Source of the DNA: an uncultured Hormoscilla sp.
Lineage (GTDB): Bacteria > Cyanobacteriota > Cyanobacteriia > Cyanobacteriales > Desertifilaceae
NCBI GenBank assembly: GCA_963921275.4
Contig: OZ001293.3
Location: 6,016,001-6,080,000, forward strand
Reading direction: 5' to 3'
Length of the DNA stretch: 64,000 nt
The stretch's first letter is position 1. Each line of letters starts with the position of its first letter. Made by a program: the position numbers and the translations under genes. Of this stretch, positions 9,969 to 64,000 are shown piece by piece. Under the pieces are notes generated by a model. That model ran no database searches and was not told the DNA's origin. It saw nothing but the letters and a program-made list of their open reading frames with translations.

Positions 9969-10264
9969 ACTATCGGGACTGCTGCTTTAACCGCACCATG
10001 AAAAATCCATCCATTTGATGTCGGTGGGGCCAGACTTTTACCCATCCCATGGCTGCGCCACGCTGCGCGATCGGCGGCGCAGGGGTGGGTCTATTTTCCA
10101 GTGGGGATGCTTCTCTAGAAATGCCTCAATAACTCTTTCGTTCTCTAAGGGATGCAGGGTACAGGAGGCATACTGGTTTATGCCTCCTGCTTTTACCAAT
10201 TATGCTGTATGTTCTAGCAGTTCTATCTGCAATGCTGATAGTTCAGTGCGACTCGTTCAGTGTA

Positions 10265-11098
<834 letters not shown>

Positions 11099-11698
11099 AA
11101 CCACCGGTGATAACCGAAGGGGGACCACTGGCAAGGCTCCATTAGCCTTGATAACTTTTAGATGATGGTGGTGAAAGCCCACCCCTCCAGGTGCAGGAGT
11201 GACAGCACTTACCCCACGGTAGCGATGGCATCAATCCGTGAAGCGGGTACGAAAGGCGCCCTGGCTGGTAGCCTAAACCGGTCATCGCCGATTTTTCGCG
11301 CAGCGTGCAAGTAGTCACGGTGAGCGAAAGCAAAGATTTACAGTGTCGTTACGACAAACCAGCGTAATAAGGCTAAACACGCTGGCCCAAAAGGGAAAGG
11401 ATAATGGTCATTGGCGGTTCCTTTTCCGACCAATAAGCACCGACAATAAACCCGGCATAAGGAATCCACCTAAAACTACGACCAATCATCTAGAGGAACG
11501 AAGTAAACCAGGTACATACTCTCAACCACCGGTCGATAGGTTGAGCAGCCACCAAAGGCGCAACATCTGCTTACATTCGGCAGGTTATATCTGGGAAAGA
11601 TTTCGCGGAGAAGCTAACGCCTTTCTGTAATGGATGGGATATGCTGACGCCCTCACGGTAACGTCAATTGTAAAGTTGTAAGTAGCAATACATACGTC

Positions 11699-13471
11699 AT
11701 GAGCACGATGTCAAAATCGATGAATGAATGGAAGGATATCCCCTGGCCTCGGCTGGAACGGGTAGTCTTTAAGTTGCAAAAACGAATTTACAGAGCGGCA
11801 CAAGAAGGCAATAAGCAAAAAGTTCGCAGGCTCCAAAGGTTACTGGTAAGCTCCCGGGCTGCCAAATGTCTAGCGGTACGACGGGTTACACAAGATAACC
11901 AGGGAAAGAAGACAGCCGGTGTGGATGGTGTGAAATCACTAACCCCAAAGCAACGCCGAGAACTGGTAGGACAGATTGAAATCTCAAACAAGGCTAAGCC
12001 TACACGTCGTGTATGGATTCCTAAGCCAGGGAGAGAAGAAAAACGTCCTTTAGGAATACCCACGATGCACGACCGCGCGAATCAAGGGCTCCTCAAGATT
12101 GCGCTCGAACCCGAATGGGAAGCATATATGGAGGGGAACTCATACGGATTCAGACCGGGTCGGGGATGCCACGATGCAATTGCGGCAATATTCAGCAGCA
12201 TTAAACAGAAACCCAAATGGGTATTAGATGCAGATATTGCGAAATGTTTCGACAGGATAGACCACAAAGCGCTAGTCGAAAAATTAAATACTACGTCACC
12301 AATCCGTAAACAAGTACGGGCATGGTTAAAAGCCGGGGTGATTGACAAGAAGATATGGCACACAACTGAGGCAGGAACGCCACAAGGGGGTGTCATATCC
12401 CCACTGCTAGCCAATATAGCCCTACAGGGGTTAGAGGAAGCAGTAATGGAATTAGCAAAGACACAAAGGGAAAAGCAAAAGCTGACGGTAGTCAGATACG
12501 CAGACGACTTTGTGATCATGCATGAAGACAGGGAGATGATAGACAGAGCGCAAACAGTGGTGGCAGAGTGGCTAAGAAGAATAGGGCTTGAGTTGAAGGC
12601 CGAAAAGACAAAGATAGCCCACAGGCTAAATGGAGAAAACCCGGGATTCGACTTCCTAGGATTCAATATAAGGCAATATAAAGAGGGAAAATACAGAACC
12701 GGCAAATCAACAAACGGAACACCCCTAGGATTCAAAACCCTAATCAAACTCAGTAATAAGTCCATAGGGAAGCATAAAGAACGGTTATCAGAAATGGTAA
12801 CTAGCCATATAACAGCACCACAAGCGGCCCTAATAAGCAGGCTAAACCCGATAATAAGGGGATGGTTAAACTACTTTAGGACAGTGGTAAGCAAGGAAAT
12901 TTACAGCGATATGGACAACTACCTATGGAACATCCTATGGCAATGGGCCAAAAGGAGGCACCCTAACAAGTCAAGTAACTGGATAACCTATAAATACTGG
13001 TCTGTAAACCAGGATGCTAAATGGCGATTCCGAAGCAAGACAAAAGAGGGTGATATGAAGATACGCAAACACTCCGAAACTGAGATAATCAGACACGTAA
13101 AAGTGAAAGGGACCGCAAGCCCATACGACGGGAACCTCACATATTGGAGCACAAGATTAGGCAAAAGCCCCGAACTGAGTAAAAGGGTAGCAACGCTACT
13201 CAAGCAGCAAAAGGGAAAATGCCAACAGTGCGGACTAACGTTTATGGATAGTGACAAATGGGAAGTTGACCATATCATGCCCCTTTCACTAGGAGGTAAG
13301 GACCGGTATGACAACCTACAGTTGCTACACAAACACTGCCACGACAAAAAGACTGCCAGCGATGGCAGTAGCCGTACCCATGACAAGGGTGGCGTGACCG
13401 AGGAGCAGGATGAGGCGAAAGTCTCATATCCGGTTTTGAAGACGAGTCGGTCCGGTGACGGACTGGCTTAG
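11699..13471 (+). CDS. ltrA: Group II intron reverse transcriptase/maturase with HNH endonuclease
   Basis: GKKTAGVDG, RPLGIPT, SYGFRPGR, GTPQGGVISPLLANI, RYADDF, C-terminal CQQC...DHIMP...NLQLLHKHCH; 590 aa, uninterrupted. Confidence 0.96.
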   Translation: MSTMSKSMNEWKDIPWPRLERVVFKLQKRIYRAAQEGNKQKVRRLQRLLVSSRAAKCLAVRRVTQDNQGKKTAGVDGVKSLTPKQRRELVGQIEISNKAKPTRRVWIPKPGREEKRPLGIPTMHDRANQGLLKIALEPEWEAYMEGNSYGFRPGRGCHDAIAAIFSSIKQKPKWVLDADIAKCFDRIDHKALVEKLNTTSPIRKQVRAWLKAGVIDKKIWHTTEAGTPQGGVISPLLANIALQGLEEAVMELAKTQREKQKLTVVRYADDFVIMHEDREMIDRAQTVVAEWLRRIGLELKAEKTKIAHRLNGENPGFDFLGFNIRQYKEGKYRTGKSTNGTPLGFKTLIKLSNKSIGKHKERLSEMVTSHITAPQAALISRLNPIIRGWLNYFRTVVSKEIYSDMDNYLWNILWQWAKRRHPNKSSNWITYKYWSVNQDAKWRFRSKTKEGDMKIRKHSETEIIRHVKVKGTASPYDGNLTYWSTRLGKSPELSKRVATLLKQQKGKCQQCGLTFMDSDKWEVDHIMPLSLGGKDRYDNLQLLHKHCHDKKTASDGSSRTHDKGGVTEEQDEAKVSYPVLKTSRSGDGLA

Positions 13472-13573
13472 TTTAATTGTACTGTCTCGGGGTTTGACGC
13501 CAACGGGCATCTGCATGGCGATGTAAGGTTCCTAAACCAGAACGTCTAGTAATACTCGATCGGCAATGTTGGT

Positions 13574-15315
13574 GGATGGGGTCGAGCCGGGAATCGCTTC
13601 CCGACCCTCCCTTGAGGAACCGGACTTGCGATTTTCACCGCATCCGGCTACTGGGTACTAGGCCCTTTTCATAGGTGGATGGGGTCGAGCCGGGAATCGC
13701 TTCCCGACCCTCCCTTGAGGAACCGGACTTGCGATTTTCACCGCATCCGGCTACTGGGTACTAGGCCCTTTTCATAGGTAGACTTAATAGGAATTACTTC
13801 CGTTAGCCCTTGCCGCCTGTCTTTTCTTCCCTTTCCTGGTTTAGCGAGTGGTTGTTCTAATAACCGTTAGTATCACCATTTTCAAGTCAGTTTTACCAGT
13901 TATCCATACCTTATCCTCCACTTGCGTTTCGGATTAGTTCCGTGGCTTTTTAGGATTACTCATTCCAGCAGCTTCCTAGTATCACCGACCCACGTCAGCG
14001 CTGGCTACCCAGCATCATCTACATTACTGTAGATGTTATCCCAGGAATTACCCCGGGCATTCGCTTCTTGGGCCATCCCTCCCCCCGTGGCTTGCGCTTA
14101 ACATCTAACTTGTCCTGATGGACAGCACACGAGAGGTTACTTCGTTCCCTAACAACATTTCGCGATACCTTTAGGTCCACACTATACCCCGGGAGCTATT
14201 TGAGTACTATATTAGCCAGAGTCTAAAACTAATACTAGCTACCATTTCCTTTTTAGGCCAGCGCATATAGCCTTATTTCGCTGGTTCCTTATAACGAGGC
14301 TTGCACATGTTTGCCTGCTCTAACCTTGGATATCTTTCCTAGCGGCGTCACCGGCTTAGGCTGCCAGTTATCCTACATTTGAGTCCTCGCTTAGCACCAC
14401 GATGATGTCGCTTCGTAGCACCGAGGACCGGTGTCACCCCCGTACCTGGGGGGAGGGGAATTTAACCCCCATGCGGTCAGAGTTCCCGGCTAATGAAACC
14501 GGGCTAGCGTTCCGTGTTTGACCACGTTAGGCTAGAACGAATCGCACAGACTTAATAGGAATTACTTCCGTTAGCCCTTGCCGCCTGTCTTTTCTTCCCT
14601 TTCCTGGTTTAGCGAGTGGTTGTTCTGATAACCGTTAGTATCACCATTTTCAAGTCAGTTTTACCAGTTATCCATACCTTATCCTCCACTTGCGTTTCGG
14701 ATTAGTTCCGTGGCTTTTTAGGATTACTCATTCCAGCAGCTTCCTAGTATCACCGACCCACGTCAGCGCTGGCTACCCAGCATCATCTACATTACTGTAG
14801 ATGTTATCCCAGGAATTACCCCGGGCATTCGCTTCTTGGGCCATCCCTCCCCCCGTGGCTTGCGCTTAACATCTAACTTGTCCTGATGGACAGCACACGA
14901 GAGGTTACTTCGTTCCCTAACAACATTTCGCGATACCTTTAGGTCCACACTATACCCCGGGAGCTATTTGAGTACTATATTAGCCAGAGTCTAAAACTAA
15001 TACTAGCTACCATTTCCTTTTTAGGCCAGCGCATATAGCCTTATTTCGCTGGTTCCTTATAACGAGGCTTGCACATGTTTGCCTGCTCTAACCTTGGATA
15101 TCTTTCCTAGCGGCGTCACCGGCTTAGGCTGCCAGTTATCCTACATTTGAGTCCTCGCTTAGCACCACGATGATGTCGCTTCGTAGCACCGAGGACCGGT
15201 GTCACCCCCGTACCTGGGGGGAGGGGAATTTAACCCCCATGCGGTCAGAGTTCCCGGCTAATGAAACCGGGCTAGCGTTCCGTGTTTGACCACGTTAGGC
15301 TAGAACGAATCGCAC
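13574..15315 (-). mobile_element. ORF-less group II intron, variant B (outer copy of self-nested twintron 2), sense to rsmB
   Basis: 15315-14548 (768 nt) plus 13676-13574 (103 nt) = 871 nt, matching the free copy at 58434-59304; removal gives in-frame AAG TTT|ACC AAC. Confidence 0.93.
13677..14547 (-). mobile_element. ORF-less group II intron, variant B (inner copy of twintron 2)
   Basis: Complete 871-nt copy GTGCGATTCG...GACCCCATCC inserted at TAAGTCT|ACCTATG of the outer copy. Confidence 0.93.
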
Positions 15316-15644
15316 AAACTTTTCTAGGTTACGTATGTCCTCCGCACAGATTTTAATTGACTGCAAGTTCAAGCGATCGCAGTTTTGGGTCAGTTTTTTC
15401 AGGCGGGAGGCGCTGCGATCGCAGGCCCAAACGGTTCCCCGATCTCCCATCAACTCGGCGATATGTGTAGTTTTGCCTCCGGGTGCCGCACAGGCATCGA
15501 TTACTACTTCACCAGGTTGGGGGTCGAGGAGATATGTTACTAATTGAGCGCTACTATCTTGTACCATCCACCACCCTTCCTGAAAACCGGGTAATTCCCT
15601 AATCGATCCTATTCTATCATTTAATCTTAAACCCGCCATCCTCA

Positions 15645-15873
15645 CCCCCACCATAAATGGTGGGGCTACAGGAACAAAGCCCGCCTGCGCGGGCTCAGAT
15701 ATTTCCTCCCCCTCCCCCACCATAAATGGTGGGGCTACATGGACAAAGCCCGCCTGCGCGGGTTGATCTATTATTCCTTCATCGCCCTTTTCCCCCACCA
15801 TAAATGGTGGGGCTACACCGAACAAAGCAATGTCCGGAGCGAGCGCAGCGTGGCAACCTTCCTGCGCGGGCTG
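15645..15873. repeat. Three REP-like palindromic units inserted in frame in rsmB
   Basis: CCCCACCATAAATGGTGGGGCTAC..ACAAAGCCCGCCTGCGCGGG x3; relatives near 38200 and 59680; translate as PAQAGFVxVAPPFMVG repeats. Confidence 0.75.
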
Positions 15874-16611
15874 ATGATATAATGTTTCCGGGACGCGACT
15901 CACTTCTATGCCTGCTGAGTGCATCGCTGCTTCTACTTCTTCTATTGTACTGCGCAGAATATTTACCCGTATGTCAATGGTTGGCGGTTTGTTCAACCAT
16001 TGACATAGTTGTTCTGTTTCTGTTTCCCCTAGCTGTTCTAATCATAGTTCTATTATCCAGTCGAGGTAACTGTGCAAAACTCCCAAACGTTCTACTAGAT
16101 TTTCTGGTAATTTCCATTCCCTATTTTCTTGATGTCGGATATATTGCCGCAGCAAACTGTTGACAAACCCCGCCAGTCTTCCCAGACGATTTTCTTTCGC
16201 TAGTTCCACCGTCCGCTCGACTGCTGCTGCTGGGATCTGACTCAGATACCCCAGTTGATATAAACCTAGATGTAATATTATCCGCAGGTCCGGGTGTTGC
16301 TTGCTGGCTGGCTTTTTGGCCAGCAGATCGATTATATTGTCCAGCGATCGCCTTCTCCGCACTATCCCATACACTAACTCCGTTACCAATGAGCGATCGC
16401 CCCCTGCCAGTTTGGCTTTATGCAGCCAGCGATCGAGGGCCACATCTGCATAGGCCGATTCGGCGATAAATTTCCTGGAGGGCGAGAAATGCTATTTGGC
16501 GGGGGTTGGGTTTCATTGACTATGAAGCTAATGGTTAATTTTCCGATATTTATTATTCTATCATGTTCGCACTACAACTGTCAAGCATACCCGAGGATTC
16601 TTTTGTATATT

Positions 16612-20964: not shown

Positions 20965-22835
20965 ATGTCTATAACACCCCTTCCCACACCGTCAAATTTA
21001 GAAGAACTGCCTCGGCATCCCATGCCGACAATGTACGATTTACCCAGCGAAAATCCAGAGGATCCCGGTTTGCCAGACGACTTTCATTCCTTACAAGCAA
21101 TACTGCTGCTGTTAACCTTTCAACCCTTCAATTGGGATCCAGAAATGGTCTAGTCGGGGTCGAGCCTATTGTCACCCCCCAACCCTCCCATTCGGAACCG
21201 GACTCTCTTTACCGCATCCGGCTACTGGGAAGCAGGGCATTGTCATTGCTAGGATTACTAAGGATTACTCCCATTGTCCCTCATCTCACGAGATTTCTCT
21301 CCTTTCCTGGTTGGTAAGTGGCGCTGCCAGATAACCTTAAGTATTACCATTTTTCTTTTCTCTGTTTTACCAGTCATCCCACCTTCTAGAGGTTTCGGGG
21401 CTTCTTAGAGATACTTTTTCCCAAGATTTCCTACTTTCACCAACCCGCGTCTGCATGTTGAGGCAGTCCTCAACTTATCCATAGGAATTACCCTAGGCAT
21501 TAGCTTCTCGGGCTATCTCTCCCCTCGTGGCTTGCGCTATGCGCTGCGCGCACGCTACGCGGACGTACATCTAACTGGTTCGGCCCCGTTGAGCCGAACT
21601 GCACACAAGAGGTTACTTCGTTCCCTGGTATCATTTCTCGATGCTTTTAGGCCCCTGCTATACCCCGGGAGCTATTCGAGTGCGATGTTGGCCAGACAAT
21701 ACGACCAACACTAGCTACCATTTCCCTTTTGGGCCAGCGTATAAGCCTTATTCCGCTGGTTCCTATTAACGAGGCTTACACAGGTTCGCTTGTTCTAGCC
21801 ATGAGCATCTTTACTAGTGGCGTCACTGGCTTAGGCTGCCAGCTATCCTACATTTAAGTCCTAGCGGAGCACCACGGCGATGTGACTCCGCAGCACTAAG
21901 GACCGGTAGTACCCTCGACCCCCCACACCTGGGGAGAGGGAATTTAACCCCCATGATAACCAGAGTTATCCGGCAAATGAAACCAGACCAGACTTCACCG
22001 TCGCCAGTTTACGCCTGAACGAATCGCACACAGTCAAATAGATCACAATATCTATTACGAGCTCAATCATCCTTTATGGTATAAACGTCCAGACTGGTTC
22101 GGAGTTGTGGGGGTGCCGCGACTGTATCAAGGGCGAGACATGCGTTTGAGCTATGTCATGTGGCAAAAAGAAGTTAGCCCATTAATAGTGGTAGAGTTAC
22201 TATCTCCAGGTACAGAAGATGAGGACTTAGGTCGCAGGAGGAGCGCACCAGGAAAACCACCCACAAAATGGCAAGTGTACGAACAAATTCTGCAGGTGCC
22301 TTACTATGTTATCTTTAGTCGTTATACCGAAGAACTGCAGGTATTTCGGCTAGTGAGAAACCGTTACCAGATGGTAGCACTGACTCAGGAACCCTTGCAA
22401 ATACCAAAAATCAAGTTGAGTCTAGGTTTATGGCGAGGAAGCTATCTGGGTCGCAACCAACTATGGTTACGGTGGATGACTGAGAGCGGAGATTTGATTG
22501 CCCCTGCCACTGATGAAGCGACAGAAGCTTTGCTTTCCGAGGAAAAAGCTGATTTCCTACGAAGTTTAAGAGCTGCTGAACAAGAAAAAGCTGCTGCTGA
22601 ACAAGAAAAAGCGGAGGCCCAACAGCAGGCCGCTGCTGCTGAACGAGAAAAAGCTGCTGCTGAACGAGAAAAAGCGGAGGCCCAACAGCGGGCCGCTGCT
22701 GCTGAACAAGAAAAAGCGGAGGCCCAACAGCGGGCCGCTGCTGCTGAACGAGAAAAAGCGGAGGTCCAACAGCAACTCGAACAATTGAAAGCCCTACTGC
22801 AAGAAAGGGGTATTGACCCAGATCGGCAGACTTAG
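20965..22835 (+). pseudogene. Uma2 family endonuclease with coiled-coil tail, interrupted by an antisense group II intron
   Basis: 20965-21151 plus 22030-22835 = 993 nt in frame (EMV T|AC SQ), colinear with the paralog at 22981. Confidence 0.88.
21152..22029 (-). mobile_element. ORF-less group II intron, variant C
   Basis: Minus strand GTGCGATTCGTTCAGG...TAGCCGGATGCGGTAAAGAG..CCGGTTCCGAATGG...CTCGACCCCGACT; boundaries fixed by the uninterrupted paralog (ATGGTCT|ACAGTCAA). Confidence 0.9.
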
Positions 22836-28291: not shown

Positions 28292-29510
<1,219 letters not shown>

Positions 29511-30330: not shown

Positions 30331-30440
30331 ATTGATTATTCCCTGACTCTGTTCTGAATGATAGCACGGCGATCATTATCCTGGTAGGGGCGATCGCCCC
30401 ACACTGGACTCCGAGCGGCCATAAACCTGGTTTCTCAGAA

Positions 30441-30872
30441 TTACTGTCTGGTCCAGTCTTCCAAAAGCAGACCGGGCACTCGTTGAAAATCTCGCCAATT
30501 GCGAGTTACTAGTATACCATCTACGGAAAGCGCGATCGCCGCTATCCGTAGGTCTTGCGTGCCAATGCGTATTTTTTGACGGCTCAATTCAGCATAACGA
30601 GCGGAAGCTGCCCGATCGAAGTCAAGCAACTTCCTGGTTCTGTAAAAGTCTACCGTTTTCCGCAGGTTGCCGTAAGTGAATAATATTTGCTCAGACTTGC
30701 CAGACTGGGAAGCTTGTCTGATACTATTGAGTCGTCCGCGCATTTGCTCTTCTACTGTAATCACAGTGATAGCAATTTCTGAGGGATTAATCCTATTTAA
30801 CTGTTCTGTCAACAATGGTTCTTCCCGTTGGAGCAGCGAGACATGATCCGTATCGAGTATCCAGAGACTCAT
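30441..30872 (-). CDS. VapC/PIN-domain toxin
   Basis: WILDTDHVS, ITVEE, GTQDLRIAAIAL, LVTRN.RDF. Confidence 0.9.
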   Translation of the reverse strand: MSLWILDTDHVSLLQREEPLLTEQLNRINPSEIAITVITVEEQMRGRLNSIRQASQSGKSEQILFTYGNLRKTVDFYRTRKLLDFDRAASARYAELSRQKIRIGTQDLRIAAIALSVDGILVTRNWRDFQRVPGLLLEDWTRQ

Positions 30873-31408
30873 ATCGCCTCATTCTCCCCATCTAAACTGT
30901 CGTAATATGCTGCCATTTCTGCATCCAATTCGCGTCTGTATGCTTCTATATATTCCAGCATCTCATCGAATAGCGGATCGTCTTTGAAAATCCCTGCATC
31001 CTGTATCCAGTAGTTATCTGGGTTTTCTTTCTTCATTTTTTCCAATTCCTCCTCACTCAGAGGTTTCACCGGTGCAGTCGGATCTTTTAAGTAATCCTTT
31101 TTTACCTCAACCACTCTTTTGATTAAGTCTAAATCATCCTGCTGAATATCCACAAATTTCAGTGATTTTTCGATCTGTTGTTCGGGGAAATTTTCGTACA
31201 ATTGGGCTATGGCTGTAAACACAACCGACCAAGTCAACCTCTCCAGATTCCGAAATGACAGAATTACCCTTTGACCTTGATTGAAAGCAGCGGCGATCTG
31301 GTCGTAAATCTTTTGACCGTGATGCCATGCTAGCGAATCGTTAGTGGGGACAATCCTCTCACAGAAGATTTCGATCTTCTCACTTGTGTGACTTTTGAGT
31401 TCCAACAT
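30869..31408 (-). CDS. Putative antitoxin with an N-terminal STAS-like (DUF4325-like) domain, copy 1
   Basis: GQKIYDQI...VILSF..L.......AIAQLY; C-terminal AGIFKDDPLFDEML; ATGA overlap with the PIN gene. Confidence 0.7.
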   Translation of the reverse strand: MLELKSHTSEKIEIFCERIVPTNDSLAWHHGQKIYDQIAAAFNQGQRVILSFRNLERLTWSVVFTAIAQLYENFPEQQIEKSLKFVDIQQDDLDLIKRVVEVKKDYLKDPTAPVKPLSEEELEKMKKENPDNYWIQDAGIFKDDPLFDEMLEYIEAYRRELDAEMAAYYDSLDGENEAI

Positions 31409-31570
31409 AGTTAATGCTCCTCTGAAAATGACTACATTAATATTATAGCAAGCCTATTTGATTTGTGCGCTAAAAGATGCCCATCAACCCTATTTCGGCG
31501 TTCCCGCATCTGAATGATAGCACGACGATCGTTCGCCTGGTAGGGGCGAACGATGTCTGCATTCGCCGCA

Positions 31571-31993
31571 TTACTGTCTGGTCCAGTCTTCCAAAAGCAG
31601 ACCGGGGACTCGTTCAAAATCGCGCCAATTGCGAGTTACTAGTATACCATCTACGGAAAGCGCGATCGCCGTAAGTCTCGCGTGCCAAGGCGTATTTTTT
31701 GACAGATTAATTCAGTATAACGAGTGGAAGCTGCCCGCTCGAAGTCAAGCAGCTTCCTGCTTCTGTAAAAGTCTACTGTTTTCCGCAGGTTGGCGTAAGC
31801 GAATATTATTTGCTCAGACTTGCCAGACTGGGAAGCTTGTCTGATATTATTGAGTCGTCCGCGCATTTGCTCTTCTACTGTAATCACAGTGATAGCAATT
31901 TCTGAGGGATTAATCCTATTTAATTGTTCTATCACAAATGGTTCTTTCCGTTGGATTAGCGAGACATAATCTGTGGAGGATCCAAAGCCTCAT
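31571..31993 (-). pseudogene. VapC/PIN toxin, decayed duplicate
   Basis: Near-identical DNA to 30441..30872 with several indels. Confidence 0.85.
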
Positions 31994-32529
31994 ATCGCCT
32001 CATTCTCCTCATCTAAACTATCGTAATATGCTGCCATTTCTGCATCCAATTTGCGATTGTATGCTTCTATATATGCCAGCATATCATCGAATTGCGGATC
32101 GTCTTTGAACATCCCTGCATCCTGTATCCAGGGGTTATCCGGGTTTTCTTTCTTCATTTTTTCTATTTCCTCCTCACTCAGGGTTTTGACCGGTGCTGTC
32201 GGATATTTTAAGTAATCCTTTTTCACCTCAACCACTCTTTTAATTAAGTCTAAATCATCCTGCCGAATATCCACAAATTTCAGTGATTTTTCGATCTGTT
32301 CTTCAGGGAAATTTTCGTACAATTGGGCTATGGCGGTAAACACAACCGACCAAGTCAGCCTCTCCAGATTCGGAAATGACAGAATTACCCTCTGATCTTG
32401 ATTGAAAGCAGCGGCGATCTGGTCGTAAATCTTTTGACCGTCATGACCTGCTAGCGAATCATTAGTGGGGACAATTCTCTCACAGAATATTTCGATCTTC
32501 TCACTTGTGTGACTTTTGAGTTCTAACAT
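31990..32529 (-). CDS. Putative STAS-like antitoxin, copy 2
   Basis: 179 aa, highly similar to 30869..31408. Confidence 0.7.
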   Translation of the reverse strand: MLELKSHTSEKIEIFCERIVPTNDSLAGHDGQKIYDQIAAAFNQDQRVILSFPNLERLTWSVVFTAIAQLYENFPEEQIEKSLKFVDIRQDDLDLIKRVVEVKKDYLKYPTAPVKTLSEEEIEKMKKENPDNPWIQDAGMFKDDPQFDDMLAYIEAYNRKLDAEMAAYYDSLDEENEAI

Positions 32530-33007
32530 AGTTAAGGAGCCTCTGAAAATGACTACGTTAATATTATAGCAATAAATTATCAGATGTCAACTACGCCCCC
32601 TCAGAAACCAGGTTGGTCAGCGATTTTAGCCTCTTTCCGTGGCGGCTCCAGAAAACCCAGGGGTTTGAACCCCTGGCGGGCGATCGGGCGATCGGACTAC
32701 GGGGAGGGTGGGGTGGGGAGGGGAGGGTTTCGCCAGTATACTGCGAATGGTCAGGAACTGCGTTTTTTTGGGCAGTAAAAAATGTCATTGCGAGGGGGGG
32801 TAATTGAGAGATACTTGTGCTTTCACCAGATACTCCCCCCCCGAAGCAATCTCCAGCGCTAGGGAACGGAGATTGCTTCGGGGGACTCGGGCGTGGAGTT
32901 TCGATAATCTCGGTAAATGCCCCCTCGCAATGACACCATTGACACATTCAATCCGGCAAAAAGCGCAAGTCGATCCCTTTGAAAGTATCGCCCAGAAACC
33001 TGGTTTC

Positions 33008-39154: not shown

Positions 39155-40608
39155 CTATTTGATGGATATTTTTCCTTTATTCAAGCATATCACAATATGC
39201 CGAGCTTTAGGACAATCTTCACGAAAAAACTTTACCCATCTGTAAAACCGGTTACACCACTGCTGTTGTGTAGGTATTTTCTGTTCATCTAAATTGACAT
39301 GCTCTCTCAAAATTTCCCGATAAGGGGGAAGGATCAGAAGAATTCCCTCACTTTTGCGGGCCGTCTCCAAGAAGCTATTCCATTCATCAGGGTTATCGTA
39401 CTGCCAGGGCGGAACATTTCCCCCGGAGAATCTATCCAGTCTACAGGAATCTGGCTTTTACCAGTAGGTAGTTTTACTTGAACATTTAGGTGATTCTTTT
39501 CAATTTTCTCAGTTGGTTTAGCTGTACCATCTTTATTCAGGCAGAACTCCCTAAGATACTTGTAACTGTACTCGTAACTATTATTATTTAGCGAAACATT
39601 GACAAATTTGCCATTCGGGTTGGCCAACTCGACCACGAGGTGAGTTTTGCCAACAAAGCGATCGCCTATATAGGTCGGGGTCGAACTGGTACTCACGTAC
39701 CAACCCTCCAAGAGCGAAACCTGAAGAGCGACTGGAACCGCACACGGCTACTGGTTTGATAAGCCCTTGTCATGGGCAGGTAACTTTTGGATTACTCCCA
39801 TTGTCCCTTGTCCTATGAAATTTTGCCCCTTATGGTCAGTCGTGGAGCCGTTAGCTACCTAACTCCGGAAGGTTTGCGGGGGTGAACCAGTAAACCACTA
39901 AATCCGCTCTTTACTTACATGTCCCTTATATTTGGGGCTCTGAATTTTTACCCGGTTAGGATTTAATCCACCATTACTCCCTAGGATTGCTCCTGGTTTA
40001 GTACATTTAAGGGCTACTATCTCCCAGAACTTCTTACCATATCCGTCCTACGTCTGCATATCCTAGGCATTACCCCAGGCTTTGGCTTCTTAGGACATCC
40101 CTCCCACGTGGGCTTGCGCTTGACATCTAACTTGTCCGTCAGTAGGACAGCACCACGGGGGTTACTTCGTTCCCTGGTATCATTTCACGAGGCTTTTAGG
40201 TCTCACCTCTACACTGGCAGTCGTTTCGGGTACGATATCAGTGATTGATTAGCACTGATACGCGGACTACATGCACATTTTGTGCCAAGCGTGTCAGCCT
40301 CTTTTCGCTTGTTCGTGGTGACGATGCTTACAGGGATTTGCTTGTTCTAACCATGAACCTCTTTCCTATCGCGCAGCGTGGCGCAGCCATGCGGCGTCGG
40401 TCCCTGGGCTGAGACCTTATCCTTCATTTAAGTCCTTGCTCCACACCACGGCGATGTGGCTCCGCAGCACTAAGGACCGGTGTCACCCCCGCACCTGGGG
40501 AAGGGGAATTTAACCCCCATGATGACCAGAGTTATCTGGCTAATGGAACCAGACCCGACTTTCACCATTACTGGTTTACGCCGGAACGAATCGCACAACC
40601 ACTCCCAC
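39155..40608 (-). pseudogene. P-loop GTPase-like protein split by a group II intron, frameshifted and truncated
   Basis: GTG 40608: MGVV|YIGDRFVGKTH (G1-like), WIDSPGE (G3-like); second frame SEGILLILPPYRE. Confidence 0.72.
39673..40596 (-). mobile_element. ORF-less group II intron, variant D, with a degenerate domain V
   Basis: GTGCGATTCGTTCCGG...TAGCCGTGTGCGGTTCCAGTCGC...TTCGACCCCGACC; removal restores GTG GTT|TAT ATA GGC. Confidence 0.88.
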
Positions 40609-47540: not shown

Positions 47541-48063
47541 GTTTAACTCGTTCCTATTTTTGAGGCTCTGCCTCCTGAGATTGCCTCATTTATCCTCTGG
47601 CAATCACATGCACCAACCATGTCAACGGACATAATATCATCGGGGGCAGTCCCCTCCCACCAAGGGTTCCGAGGCGGAGCCTCGGAACCAGGCCGAAGGA
47701 GTTCGGAGTTTAACTCGTTCCATGACTCCGGCATGGAACGTATTTTTGAGGCTCTGCCTCCTGAGATTGCCTTATTTATCCTCTGGCAATCACATGCACT
47801 AAACATGTCAACGGACATAATATCATCGGGGGCAGTCCCCTCCCACCAAGGGTTCCGAGGCGGAGCCTCGGAACCAGGCCGAAGGAGTTCGGAGTTTAAC
47901 TCGTTCCATGACTCCGGCATGGAACGTATTTTTGAGGCTCTGCCTCCTGAGATTGCCTTATTTATCCTCTGGCAATCACATGCACCAACCATGTCAACGG
48001 ACATAATATCATAAGAGGCAGTTCCCTCCCACCAAGGGTTCCAAGGCTCCGCCTTGGAACCAG
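47541..48063. repeat. Tandem array of a 186-bp palindromic element (about 3 units)
   Basis: Units start at 47541, 47708 and 47894; contain GAGGCTCTGCCTC/GAGGCGGAGCCTC, also seen near 20415, 20605 and 35343. Confidence 0.85.
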
Positions 48064-48164: not shown

Positions 48165-48635
48165 AGCGCTATTGGAAAAACTGAATACCCTACCTATCTT
48201 TCGTAGACAAATACGCGCCTGGCTGAAGGCAGGTGTGATAGATGGGAAGAAAATGTTTGAGACAGAGGAAGGAACTCCCCAGGGTGGGGTTATATCGCCT
48301 TTGTTGGCAAATGTGGCCCTACATAGACTAGAGGAGGAAGTAAAATCCTTGGCAGGAAAAAACACAGTTAAACAGAAAGAAAGGAATGCGAACTAACGTT
48401 CAGAGAAGGAGATAGATGGGAAGTAGACCACATCGAACCGCTATCATTGGGTGGTAAAGACCGGTGGGATAACATCCAGCTATGACACAAACATTGTCAC
48501 CACAGAAAGATAACCAGAGATGGAAGTCGTCGTATTATTGACTTGGATGGCATTATCGAGGAGCTGGATGAGGTGAAAATCTCACGTCCGGTTTTGAATA
48601 CTCCTCGGTCCGGTAACTCCCTGGCTTAGTTTAAA
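48165..48635 (+). pseudogene. Internally deleted group II intron RT remnant with domains V/VI
   Basis: GTPQGGVISPLLANV fragment joined directly to an HNH tail (WEVDHIEPLSLGGKD..NIQL*HKHCH), then GAGCTGGATGAGGTGAAAATCTCACGTCCGGTT...GGCTTAGTTTAA. Confidence 0.88.
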
Positions 48636-58433: not shown

Positions 58434-59304
58434 GTGCGATTCGTTCTAGCCTAACGTGGTCAAACACGGAACGCTAGCCCGGTTTCATTAGCCGGGAACT
58501 CTGACCGCATGGGGGTTAAATTCCCCTCCCCCCAGGTACGGGGGTGACACCGGTCCTCGGTGCTACGAAGCGACATCATCGTGGTGCTAAGCGAGGACTC
58601 AAATGTAGGATAACTGGCAGCCTAAGCCGGTGACGCCGCTAGGAAAGATATCCAAGGTTAGAGCAGGCAAACATGTGCAAGCCTCGTTATAAGGAACCAG
58701 CGAAATAAGGCTATATGCGCTGGCCTAAAAAGGAAATGGTAGCTAGTATTAGTTTTAGACTCTGGCTAATATAGTACTCAAATAGCTCCCGGGGTATAGT
58801 GTGGACCTAAAGGTATCGCGAAATGTTGTTAGGGAACGAAGTAACCTCTCGTGTGCTGTCCATCAGGACAAGTTAGATGTTAAGCGCAAGCCACGGGGGG
58901 AGGGATGGCCCAAGAAGCGAATGCCCGGGGTAATTCCTGGGATAACATCTACAGTAATGTAGATGATGCTGGGTAGCCAGCGCTGACGTGGGTCGGTGAT
59001 ACTAGGAAGCTGCTGGAATGAGTAATCCTAAAAAGCCACGGAACTAATCCGAAACGCAAGTGGAGGATAAGGTATGGATAACTGGTAAAACTGACTTGAA
59101 AATGGTGATACTAACGGTTATCAGAACAACCACTCGCTAAACCAGGAAAGGGAAGAAAAGACAGGCGGCAAGGGCTAACGGAAGTAATTCCTATTAAGTC
59201 TACCTATGAAAAGGGCCTAGTACCCAGTAGCCGGATGCGGTGAAAATCGCAAGTCCGGTTCCTCAAGGGAGGGTCGGGAAGCGATTCCCGGCTCGACCCC
59301 ATCC
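58434..59304 (+). mobile_element. ORF-less group II intron, variant B, free-standing copy
   Basis: 871 nt, GTGCGATTCGTTCTAGCC...CTCGACCCCATCC; reverse complement of the twintron 2 copies. Confidence 0.93.
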
Positions 59305-60580: not shown

Positions 60581-63500
60581 ATGGCTGAATTTAACGTCGC
60601 ACCGTCAGCAGAACTATCCCAAGCCATTATCACTTCCAGTAATAACGGTGAGGCAGATACCATTAACATCACGGGAGATATTACCCTGACGGGGTTGCTA
60701 CCCCTTATTGAAGAAGACGTCGAACTCACGATAGATGGGAACAACAACACCATTAATGGCAACAACCAACACCGGCTGTTCTTTGTCAGAAGAGGTGTGG
60801 TCAAGTTCGATGACCTGACCTTTAGCAACGGCCAGGCCCAGGGAGGCAATGGCTGCGGCGGGGCGGCAGGCATGGGCGGTGCCCTGTTTGTCTTTGAGGG
60901 GACGGTCACGGTGACCGATAGCACTTTCCAGAATAATAGCGCCATTGGTGGCAATGGCGGCACGGGAGGTGTGGGTGGTAATGCTAATTTCGTCACTCCT
61001 ATTCCTGGTAATAATGGCAGTGACGGCAGCTTCGGCAGCAACGGCCGCAACGGCGGCTTCGGCAGATTAAGCGGCGGCGGCGGCGGCCCCGGCGGCTTCG
61101 GCGGCGGCGGCAGCCCCCGTGGCTCCGGCCTCCGTGGCTCCGGCGGGTCCGGCGGTTCCGGCGGCTTCGGCGGCGGCGGCGACGGCGGCCTCAGAGGCGG
61201 CTTCGGCGGCTCACCAATAGCAACCGGAACCGCCAGGGCATGCCCAACAGCCTGCCGACCGTGACCCTCACACAGGTAACCTTCTCGGGCAATAGCGCCG
61301 CTAATGGTATGGTAACGCCCACTCCAGCGTCCATCATGTCGGGCACAGTCCTGAACAATAACGATCTGTTCGGCAACCAAATCACCCGCAACTCCCGTCC
61401 TACAAACCTCGAACTCAGCAACAGCAGCATTGATGAAAACCCCGCAGTCAATAGCCTCGTAGGGACTTTCTCCACTACCGACCCCGACGTTTCCGATACC
61501 TTTACCTACCAGTTAGTCACAGGCGACGGTGCCGATGATAACGACGCCTTCACCATAGAAGGGAACTCACTGCTAACTAACAGTTCCTTGGACTTTGAGA
61601 CAAAATCGAGTTACAGCATCCGCGTCCAGACTACCGACTCTGCTGGGGCCAGTTACTCGGAGGCCTTGGCTATTGGCATCAACAATGTTGCCGAACCTCC
61701 TACCGACATCAACCTCAGCAGCAGCAGCATCGATGAAAACTCCACATTGGGTAGCGTTGTAGGGACTTTCTCCATTACCGACGACGATAATGAAGATACC
61801 TTTACCTACCAGTTAGTCACAGGCGACAGTGGCGATGATAACGACGCCTTCACCATAACAGGGAACTCACTGCTAACTAACAGTTCCTTAGACTTTGAGA
61901 CAAAATCGAGTTACAGCATCCGCGTCCAGACTACTGACTCTGCTGGGGCCAGTTACTCGGAGGCCTTGACTATTAACGTCAACAATATTATTGACGAGTC
62001 TCCTACCGACCTAGTTCTCAGCAACCGCAACATTGATGAAAACTCCGCATCGGGTAGTGTCGTAGGGACTTTCTCTACTACCGACCTCGACGTTTCCGAT
62101 AGCTTTACCTACCAGTTAGTCACAGGCCCTGGTCCCAATGATAACGACGCCTTCACGATAACAGGGAACTCACTGCGAATTAACAGTTCCCCTGACTTTG
62201 GACTTTGAGACCCAGTCGATTTACATCATCAAAGTCCAAACTACCGACTCTGCTAATAATGCTTTGGAGGAGGTCTTGATTATTGACGTGAACGATGTTG
62301 CCTCATCTCCGACGGACATCAATCTCAGCAGCAGCAGCATCGATGAAAACTCCCCATTGGGTGCAGTTGTGGGGACTTTCTCCACTAGCGACCCCGAGGA
62401 TGAAGATAGCTTTACCTATATGCTTGTCTCAGGCGTTGGTGATGATGATAATGACGCCTTCACCATAGTAGGGGACTCACTGCGAATTAACAGTTCTTTG
62501 GACTTTGAGACTCAGTCGAGTTACAGCATCCGCGTCCAGACTACCGATGCTACTGGGGCCAGTTATGAGGAGGCCTTGACTATTAGCGTCATTGATGTTG
62601 CCGAACCTCCGACGGACATCGACCTCAACAGCAGCATTGATTCTAACTCCCCATTGGGTGCAGTTGTGGGGACTTTCTCCACTAGCGACCCCGAGGATGG
62701 AGATAGCTTTACCTACATGTTTGTCTCAGGCGTTGGTGACGATGATAATGACGCCTTCACCATAGTAGGGGACTCACTGCGAATTAACAGTTCTTTGGAC
62801 TTTGAGACTCAGTCGAGTTACAGCCTCCGCGTCCAGACTACTGACTCTGCTAATAACGCTTTGGAGGAGGTCTTGACTATTAACGTCAACTCAGTTGCCT
62901 CCTCTCCTACCGACATAGTCCTTAGCAACAGCAGCATTGATTCTAACTCTCCATTGGGTGCAGTTGTGGGGACTTTCTCTACTACCGACCCCGACGTTTC
63001 CGATAGCTTTACCTATATGCTTGTCTCAGGCGTTGGTGATGATGATAATGACGCCTTCACCATAGTAGGGGACTCACTGCGAATTAACAGTTCTTTGAAC
63101 TTTGAGACCCAGTCGAGTTACAGCCTCCGCGTCCAGACTACCGACTCTGCTAATAACACTTTCTCGGAGGTCTTGACTATTAATGTCAACTCAGTTGCAG
63201 AAAACTCCTCTCCTACCGATATAGTTCTTAGCAGCAGCAGCATTGATTCTAACTCTCCATTGGGTGCAGTCGTGGGGACTTTCTCTACTACTGACCCCGA
63301 CGTTTCCGATAGCTTTACCTACATGCTTGTCTCCGGCAACAACGCCTTCACCATAGTAGGGAACCAACTGCTAACTAACAGTTCTTTGGACTTTGAGACT
63401 CAGGAGATTTACAGGATATTCGTCCAAACTACCGACTCTGCTAATAACACTTTCTCGGAGGTCTTGACTATTAATGTCAACTCAGTTGCAGAAAACTCCT

Positions 63501-64000
63501 CTCTTACCGATATAGTTCTTAGCAGCAGCAGCATTGATTCTAACTCTCCATTGGGTGCAGTTGTGGGGACTTTCTCTACTACCGACCCCGACGATGGAGA
63601 TAGCTTTACCTACATGCTTGTCTCCGGCAACAACGCCTTCACTATAGTAGGGGACTCACTGCTAACTAACAGTTCTTTGGACTTTGAGACTCAGTCGAGT
63701 TACAGCATCCGCGTTCAGACTACCGACTCTGCTAATAACACTTTCTCGGAGGTCTTGACTATTAATGTCAACTCAGTTGCAGAAAACTCCTCTCCTACCG
63801 ATATAGTTCTTAACAGCAGCAGCATTGATTCTAACTCTCCATTGGGTGCAGTTGTGGGGACTTTTTCCACTACCGACCCCGACGATGGAGATAGCTTTAC
63901 TTACCAGTTAGTCTCCGGCAACAACGCCTTCACCATAGTAGGGGACCAACTGCTAATTAACAGTTCGGAGGACTTTGAGACTCGATCGAGTTACAGCATC
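60581..64000 (+). pseudogene. Large Gly-rich, cadherin-repeat surface protein with two frameshifts; runs off right edge
   Basis: AGGAG RBS; GGAAGMGGALFV; about 9 units of about 100 aa (PTDI.LS.SSIDEN...VGTFSTTD.D..D.FTY.LV...LDFET...YSIRVQTTD); frame breaks near 61210 and at 62194-62207. Confidence 0.85.

Follow-up and report, generated by a model that had tools for sequence, protein, structure and literature searches.

A self-nested ORF-less group II intron in a Hormoscilla chromosome and the probable origin of its nests

The window, a 64,000-nt stretch of the chromosome of an uncultured Hormoscilla sp., contains a group II intron that is nested in itself. On the minus strand a complete 871-nt ORF-less intron lies within a second copy of the same intron, and sequence comparison gives the geometry A-[AB]-B (Table 1). 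The most probable account, to which we assign a probability of about 0.78, is that a spliced copy of the intron, probably with a borrowed reverse transcriptase (RT), reverse-spliced into an older copy at a site in domain IV that matches its guide sequences. The initial annotation had described the arrangement, and the observation is confirmed: the outer halves 15315-14548 and 13676-13574, when joined, reproduce the free copy at 58434-59304 letter for letter with zero differences, and removal of the inner copy restores the outer intron exactly, as the definition of a twintron asks. The outer intron is split between nt 768 and 769, in domain IV, and the junctions read AAGTCT|GTGCG (14548/14547) and CCATCC|ACCTAT (13677/13676). 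Rfam RF00029 detects domain V/VI above the gathering threshold at 13679-13755, 13576-13652 and 59226-59302.

The inner copy differs from the outer copy solely at intron nt 689 (window 13859 vs 14627), where the change from G to A that had been reported earlier is indeed present. EBS1, EBS2 and domains V and VI of the inner copy are intact and its one change is in domain IV, so that it is not of the degenerate ‘zombie’ type. The same difference had been taken to argue against a collapse of reads, a use for which it is weak: it is found in 1 of 138 copies, namely the inner copy of the window, and a private single-base difference is alone insufficient to exclude a base-calling error. It is the recurrence of the nest and the match to the target, rather than this base, that form the real evidence.

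Table 1. Features of the nest, its target sites and its surroundings (window coordinates).
Feature	Position	Strand	Remarks
Outer intron, 5′ part	14548..15315	-	intron nt 1-768, domains I-III and most of IV; identical to 58434-59201
Inner intron, complete 871 nt	13677..14547	-	one private difference at 13859
Outer intron, 3′ part	13574..13676	-	intron nt 769-871, end of domain IV with V and VI; RF00029 at 13576-13652, 44.4 bits
Free copy, 871 nt	58434..59304	+	inserted in a short repeated element
EBS2 AAGGUU	inner 14322..14327, outer 15090-15095	-	intron nt 221-226; complementary to AACCTT consensus at -15..-10
EBS1 AGACUC	inner 14219..14224, outer 14987-14992	-	intron nt 324-329, loop of d3 hairpin; complementary to GAGTCT consensus of 138 flanks
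Domain V, AGC triad	inner 13721..13752, outer 13618-13649	-	Rfam and fold
Self target of inner copy	14548..14562	-	IBS2-like ATTCCT and IBS1 AAGTCT, domain IV; 12.16 bits
Unoccupied self target in inner copy	13779..13794 (junction 13780|13779)	-	open to further nesting
Broken rsmB (16S rRNA m5C967 methyltransferase)	9970..16519	-	pieces 16519-15876, 15644-15316, 13573-13481, 10244-9970
RT-encoding group II intron	10246..13477	+	antisense in rsmB; 590-aa RT/maturase/HNH ORF 11699-13471
Second ORF-less family intron, 835 nt	10265..11099	+	nested 19 nt inside 5′ end of RT intron, same orientation; 72 full copies in genome

The longest ORF inside a copy has 53 aa, so domain IV holds no intron-encoded protein; similarity to the long introns of the genome reveals a remnant of the 3′ end of an RT ORF, which begins at nt 768. 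Domain IV was placed at nt 536-794, V at nt 796-827 and VI at nt 834-866 from local folds and motifs, the motifs being named by the group II intron convention; a minimum-energy fold of the whole intron did not recover the six-domain structure. Domain V has the AGC triad and a 2-nt bulge and is followed by domain VI, together scoring 44.4 bits with RF00029 against a cut-off of 40. At the 5′ GUGYG boundary a GTGCG start is aligned in all 138 full copies, and variation of the flanks reaches right up to it. The EBS1 hairpin is without variation among the copies read.

Canonical IIB1 introns end in AY and have the branch adenosine at -8, and in subgroup IIB the 3′ exon is recognised by an EBS3-IBS3 pairing rather than by δ. 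The intron described here ends in AUCC, with a predicted unpaired A of domain VI 9 nt from the 3′ end, and it is therefore classed as IIB-like and not as canonical IIB1. Position +1 of the 3′ exon is A in 96/138 and G in 26/138 copies, which is compatible with U at either the EBS3 or the δ position. In the sister ORF-less families, too, 9 nt separate the domain VI adenosine from the 3′ end; the RT introns of the genome have 8. This difference of 9 vs 8 nt beyond the adenosine (e.g. window 13574-13582) may point to a different branch register or splicing route in the ORF-less families.

The insertion flanks of the 138 copies yield the consensus AACCTTA..GAGTCT|A, complementary to EBS2 and EBS1, with G-6 conserved in 118, T-3 in 114, T-1 in 117 and A+1 in 96; the earlier identification of AGACUC as EBS1 is thereby upheld. 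A target matrix was made from 104 non-self target classes (near-identical repeated targets collapsed), leaving out the self sites, the tandem-internal junctions and an A-B-B locus described below. In the self target, IBS1 AAGTCT pairs with EBS1 at 5/6 positions, as had been proposed, ATTCCT forms 3 Watson-Crick pairs and 1 G-U pair of 6 with EBS2, and the preferred A stands at +1. The matrix places this site first of the 1,706 intron positions on both strands, at 12.16 bits vs 7.95 for the next best. The leave-one-out median for the 104 real target classes is 11.1 bits, and the self site beats 66% of real targets; the intron does carry a usable target for itself, as the initial annotation held. 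Elsewhere in the genome, 276 of about 13.5 million positions score as well as the self site.

The nest in the window is one of several. On the 6.88-Mb chromosome (C1) there are 138 full-length copies of at least 95% identity, 61 of them exactly the consensus, with a mean of 1.1 differences per copy, and such near-identity points to a burst in the very recent past. Five A-[AB]-B nests were found, at C1:1325884, 4743593, 5180205, 6031315 (the window nest) and 6411996, in each of which the outer copy is interrupted at nt 768 and shares at least 99.3% identity with the inner one. The reading of the locus as an insertion and not a tandem AB-AB is backed by this structure and by the flanks of the 138 copies. 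Self-insertion of an ORF-less copy had also been called unusual, which does not hold: there are five nests in the genome, and a case of self-invasion of domain IV has been published (PMC7049729). As to the suggestion that the intron could nest recursively, none of the five nests is doubly nested, against about 0.1-0.3 double nests expected.

Other multi-unit loci accompany the nests. An A-B-B element at C1:3454542-3455515 (974 nt) consists of a full intron and then a second domain V/VI unit; its host is a repeated transposase-like sequence, the other copy of which (C1:1029641) carries a plain monomer at the same site. Head-to-tail arrays of two copies (C1:824934-826675) and three copies (C1:5447656-5450268) are precise, have good upstream targets and carry differing alleles. 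In the contigs of run X1, perhaps the source sample, the intron is by a rough figure 114-144x deeper than unique flanks, which fits the copy number in the assembly. One family of RT introns also carries the 871-nt intron, in antisense and at a single position of the ORF, in 9/13 host copies (e.g. 1148426, 3651401, 4454838). There it severs the RT ORF ahead of the endonuclease end, and the alleles point to separate insertions; the intron may be a parasite that disables potential helper RT introns.

According to the most probable account, the spliced 871-nt intron RNA would have acted with a maturase/RT borrowed from an RT-encoding intron of the genome, reverse-splicing into the DNA of another copy at its nt 768, with target-primed reverse transcription to follow. 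The mobilisation in trans would be the work of an endonuclease-bearing CL-type RT. For Thermosynechococcus elongatus, trans-mobilisation of ORF-less introns and divergence of EBS are reported in PMC2882425 as experimentally shown. The precise and recent insertions suggest that the Hormoscilla intron is active. With the insert in domain IV, the inner copy probably does not have to be spliced out first, and the nest may be tolerated because domain IV is dispensable and the host gene, rsmB, was already dead. Each nest would have its own origin. The allele G475A occurs in one inner copy and G61A in one outer copy, both occur in free monomers as well, and no nest has both; two nests lie inside RT introns, and these hosts belong to different sub-lineages. 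The outer copies carry 7 differences vs 2 for the inner copies (p=0.09), a weak sign that the inner copies are younger.

The A-B-B element calls for separate consideration. Because the copies are identical, either domain I-III could in principle work with either V-VI, in four registers. One transcript might then release mobile RNAs of 871, 974, 1,639 and 1,742 nt; the 974-nt element would be the retrohomed product of a mixed register, and self-nesting just ahead of domain V would offer a general pathway to duplicated V/VI units and alternative 3′ splice sites, as in C.te.I1 of Clostridium tetani. As described in PMC3919590 and PMC4424553, C.te.I1 resembles the A-B-B locus in having one domain I-IV followed by repeated V/VI units; its repeats are separated by coding exons and its alternative splicing is proven, whereas the repeat at the A-B-B locus is direct. 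If the mixed-register reading were true, the architecture of C.te.I1 would here be observed in the making, in a bacterium whose intron count lies several-fold above the highest published one found. We regard it as unlikely. The A-B-B locus is more simply accounted for by recombination between the two 768-nt repeats, through which nests would collapse to this form. The nest is a natural substrate for studying how partners are chosen when one RNA holds two identical ribozyme cores, and how duplicated domains V/VI originate.

It is possible that a nest formed once or twice and then retrohomed whole as a 1,742-nt unit, the inner copy being cargo of domain IV. This domain normally houses an ORF of about 1.8 kb and would have room for 871 nt, and the ends of the five outer copies are all precise and lie at normal targets. 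Moreover, PMC7049729 describes the lycophyte self-twintron as splicing in one step, and Mohr et al. (PMC2882425) name retromobility of composites as a possible route. However, the nests have no common haplotype pair, alleles shared with monomers being inner in one nest and outer in another, and independent insertion suffices for the number of nests. Gene conversion could blur these alleles and therefore leaves some room for spread of the nest as one unit, which nevertheless appears distinctly improbable beside independent insertion.

A further question is whether the internal target has been kept as an adaptation by which the intron always has somewhere harmless to land, a proposal made for the nested arrays of Methanosarcina. 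A sense-strand site of equal quality arises in only 2.4% of 3,000 shuffles, the sites in about 143 copies add to just the 276 equally good sites elsewhere, and the corresponding position in domain IV scores about 8-11 bits in several sister families. Against this, 6 of about 143 copies are hit, not above expectation. Like-scoring genomic sites are occupied at 8.3% in-sample and 4.5-6.2% cross-validated, and 3.4-6.3 self nests are expected from ordinary target use vs 6 observed (5 full and 1 A-B-B), by a crude model that counts each existing copy as one more site and omits selection on other sites and nest loss. Self-nesting is apparently not preferred; an ordinary target is hit at an ordinary rate. 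Among 54 family representatives (copies at least 93% like a representative), self nests were seen in the 871-nt family and in no other, the 72-copy ORF-less family showing none, and with dozens of families one coincidence at the 2-5% level is unremarkable.

The closest homolog of the 871-nt intron, in the relative G004, is 92% identical and keeps both AAGTCT|ACC and EBS2, yet its EBS1 is UCUAGA, which does not match its own internal site; its flanks have changed in step with its EBS1, and self-nesting was seen in 0/5 copies examined. Since the homolog keeps the domain IV site and differs in EBS1, the self match is likely to be incidental. The likely history is that EBS1 shifted while the domain IV sequence stayed, so that it came by chance to match an older motif. 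What had been called the intron's ‘own homing target’ is accordingly a usable target, but, given the ordinary occupancy and the EBS1 mismatch in G004, it is probably a target by coincidence, and retention by selection seems very improbable. With about 140 copies and loose targeting, the use of the other insertion sites predicts how often a chance match inside the intron will be hit, and self-invasion needs no special mechanism.

The short reads have to be considered together with the possibility of an artefact. In runs X1, X2 and X3, from this organism or a close one, the nest junction 14548/14547 is unbridged among the contigs listed; these cross nt 768 into the normal 3′ end, and one X1 contig is unbroken there. 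Six of 24 runs were compared in all, among them one raw RNA run (X21), which gave 0 reads and is evidence neither way. Short-read contigs are simplified and rare branches are dropped, and this result neither confirms nor refutes the nests. The junction was found in 0 metagenome contigs and 0 genome contigs of two public collections, in which the organism's own genome is possibly not included, and a 13-nt junction pattern gave only one-mismatch matches, at control level, in G001-G004. A duplication at the DNA level (A-A-B-B, as adjacent tandem duplications of 768 and 103 nt) or a mis-assembly among 140 near-identical repeats would be in keeping with the absence of the junction from the contigs listed, with single-base indels in some copies that suggest long-read error, and with a sister intron in G002 that is duplicated in tandem as DNA (period 836 nt, including 65 nt of flank), but is scarcely credible, as two duplications would have to coincide at nt 768 and stop precisely at the two intron termini on five occasions, nt 768 is the best predicted target of 1,706 positions, and the G002 duplication ignores the intron ends.

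That G002 locus (G002:C4) had been considered as an A-A-B form and was rejected on finding the tandem duplication with its flank. Split copies in G004 were likewise rejected as self-nests, the interrupting sequence being a different ORF-less intron in antisense orientation; at L019, L020 and L021 of G004 such an intron breaks the homologous intron at the EBS1 hairpin. When run X11 was searched with window 14508-15450, the whole intron was recovered in a single contig of 901 nt (871+30), in which its 3′ end runs into its 5′ end, at depth 203 and with no rsmB flank. This contig could be circular intron RNA, or shallow DNA closed by the three genomic head-to-tail junctions.

The nest lies in sense orientation in the only rsmB match of the genome. 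The pieces match NCBIfam NF011493/TIGR00563 below the whole-protein cut-offs, and alignment with the intact 446-aa frame of G001 reveals stops, frameshifts, a repeat insertion and the antisense RT intron. The nest site is empty in G001, G003 and G004, and G002 has no match. A frameshift just downstream of the nest site is found at the same place in G003 and G004, with the site empty, and rsmB was probably dead before the intron arrived. Splicing would therefore not restore the protein and would be under no evident selection. A regulatory role of the nest in rsmB was considered and rejected, the gene being broken and the nearby frameshift being shared with G003 and G004, whose sites are empty. 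The normally conserved rRNA methyltransferase has been lost more widely in the genus: rsmB is frameshifted in 3 of the 4 members where it was found (G000, the present genome, G003 and G004) and intact in G001.

The RT intron next to the nest is a candidate for the type of element that would mobilise the ORF-less family in trans: its ORF matches TIGR04416 with 341 bits, above the cut-off, and its closest solved structure is 6me0_C (E 5e-115). The genome has 42 long RT-like frames, several of them full-length RT/HNH ORFs of about 590 aa. No close RT-intron parent of the 871-nt RNA was found in the genome, the similarity being only 67-88% over short stretches.

A literature search, of mostly open papers and main texts, found no report of a bacterium in which identical ORF-less copies nest in one another; self-invasion as such is a known phenomenon, of which the nest is a clean new example. 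A close parallel is the self-twintron of Lycopodiaceae mitochondria, cox1i1149g2 with the internal cox1i1149g2ii652g2 (Zumkeller, Gerke and Knoop 2020, PMC7049729). As described there, a hypermobile group II intron without a functional maturase frame, with many genomic copies, sits in its own domain IV, but the case is old, single and organellar, with a degenerate, non-splicing inner copy, whereas the present one is bacterial and occurs five times, with at least 99.3% identity and an intact inner copy.

In T. elongatus, as reported by Mohr et al. (2010, PMC2882425), TeI3a-e are inserted in TeI4a-e, and TeI3i in the ORF-less TeI3h. These are likewise trans-mobilised cyanobacterial ORF-less introns, which enter related introns at one fixed position in domain IV, with one case of ORF-less in ORF-less, families set by EBS divergence, and younger inner copies. 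In contrast with the present nests, the guests are described as belonging to other EBS families than their hosts, insertion is at the start of the ORF rather than its end, and 6/7 family members use it, compared with 6 of about 143 here. The nested arrays of Methanosarcina acetivorans, up to five deep by the accounts in PMC4424553 and PMC2882425, show the same repeated homing of group II introns into group II introns, offset by recombinational deletion; they enter the ORFs of related introns, while the present nests are one level deep and within an ORF-less family. Trichodesmium Tery_4732 (Pfreundt and Hess 2015, PMC4649490) is also a cyanobacterial group II twintron in a protein-coding gene, but the two introns described there are unrelated and both bear ORFs; the inner one interrupts domain I, they were shown to splice sequentially, and the host gene is functional.

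More striking than the nest itself is the intron load of the genome. Domain V matches number 463 at E <=0.05 (443 at E <=1e-3) on the chromosome, against 0 at <=0.05 in a reversed control. There are at least 336 full-length group II introns without interruption, which cover 330 kb and of which 312 have the size of ORF-less introns; the maximum given in a 2022 survey, which used a different pipeline, is 101 introns (PMC8919778). This load makes the genome a bacterial model for the invasion by introns that early eukaryotes are proposed to have undergone. The window itself has other group II introns or fragments at 21146-22030, 28535-29370, 40057-40597 and 48387-48634. It also has long direct repeats at 61390-64000, 30432-32572 and 47555-48063, with periods of about 300, 1,130 and 186 nt, which are probably repeat-protein genes.
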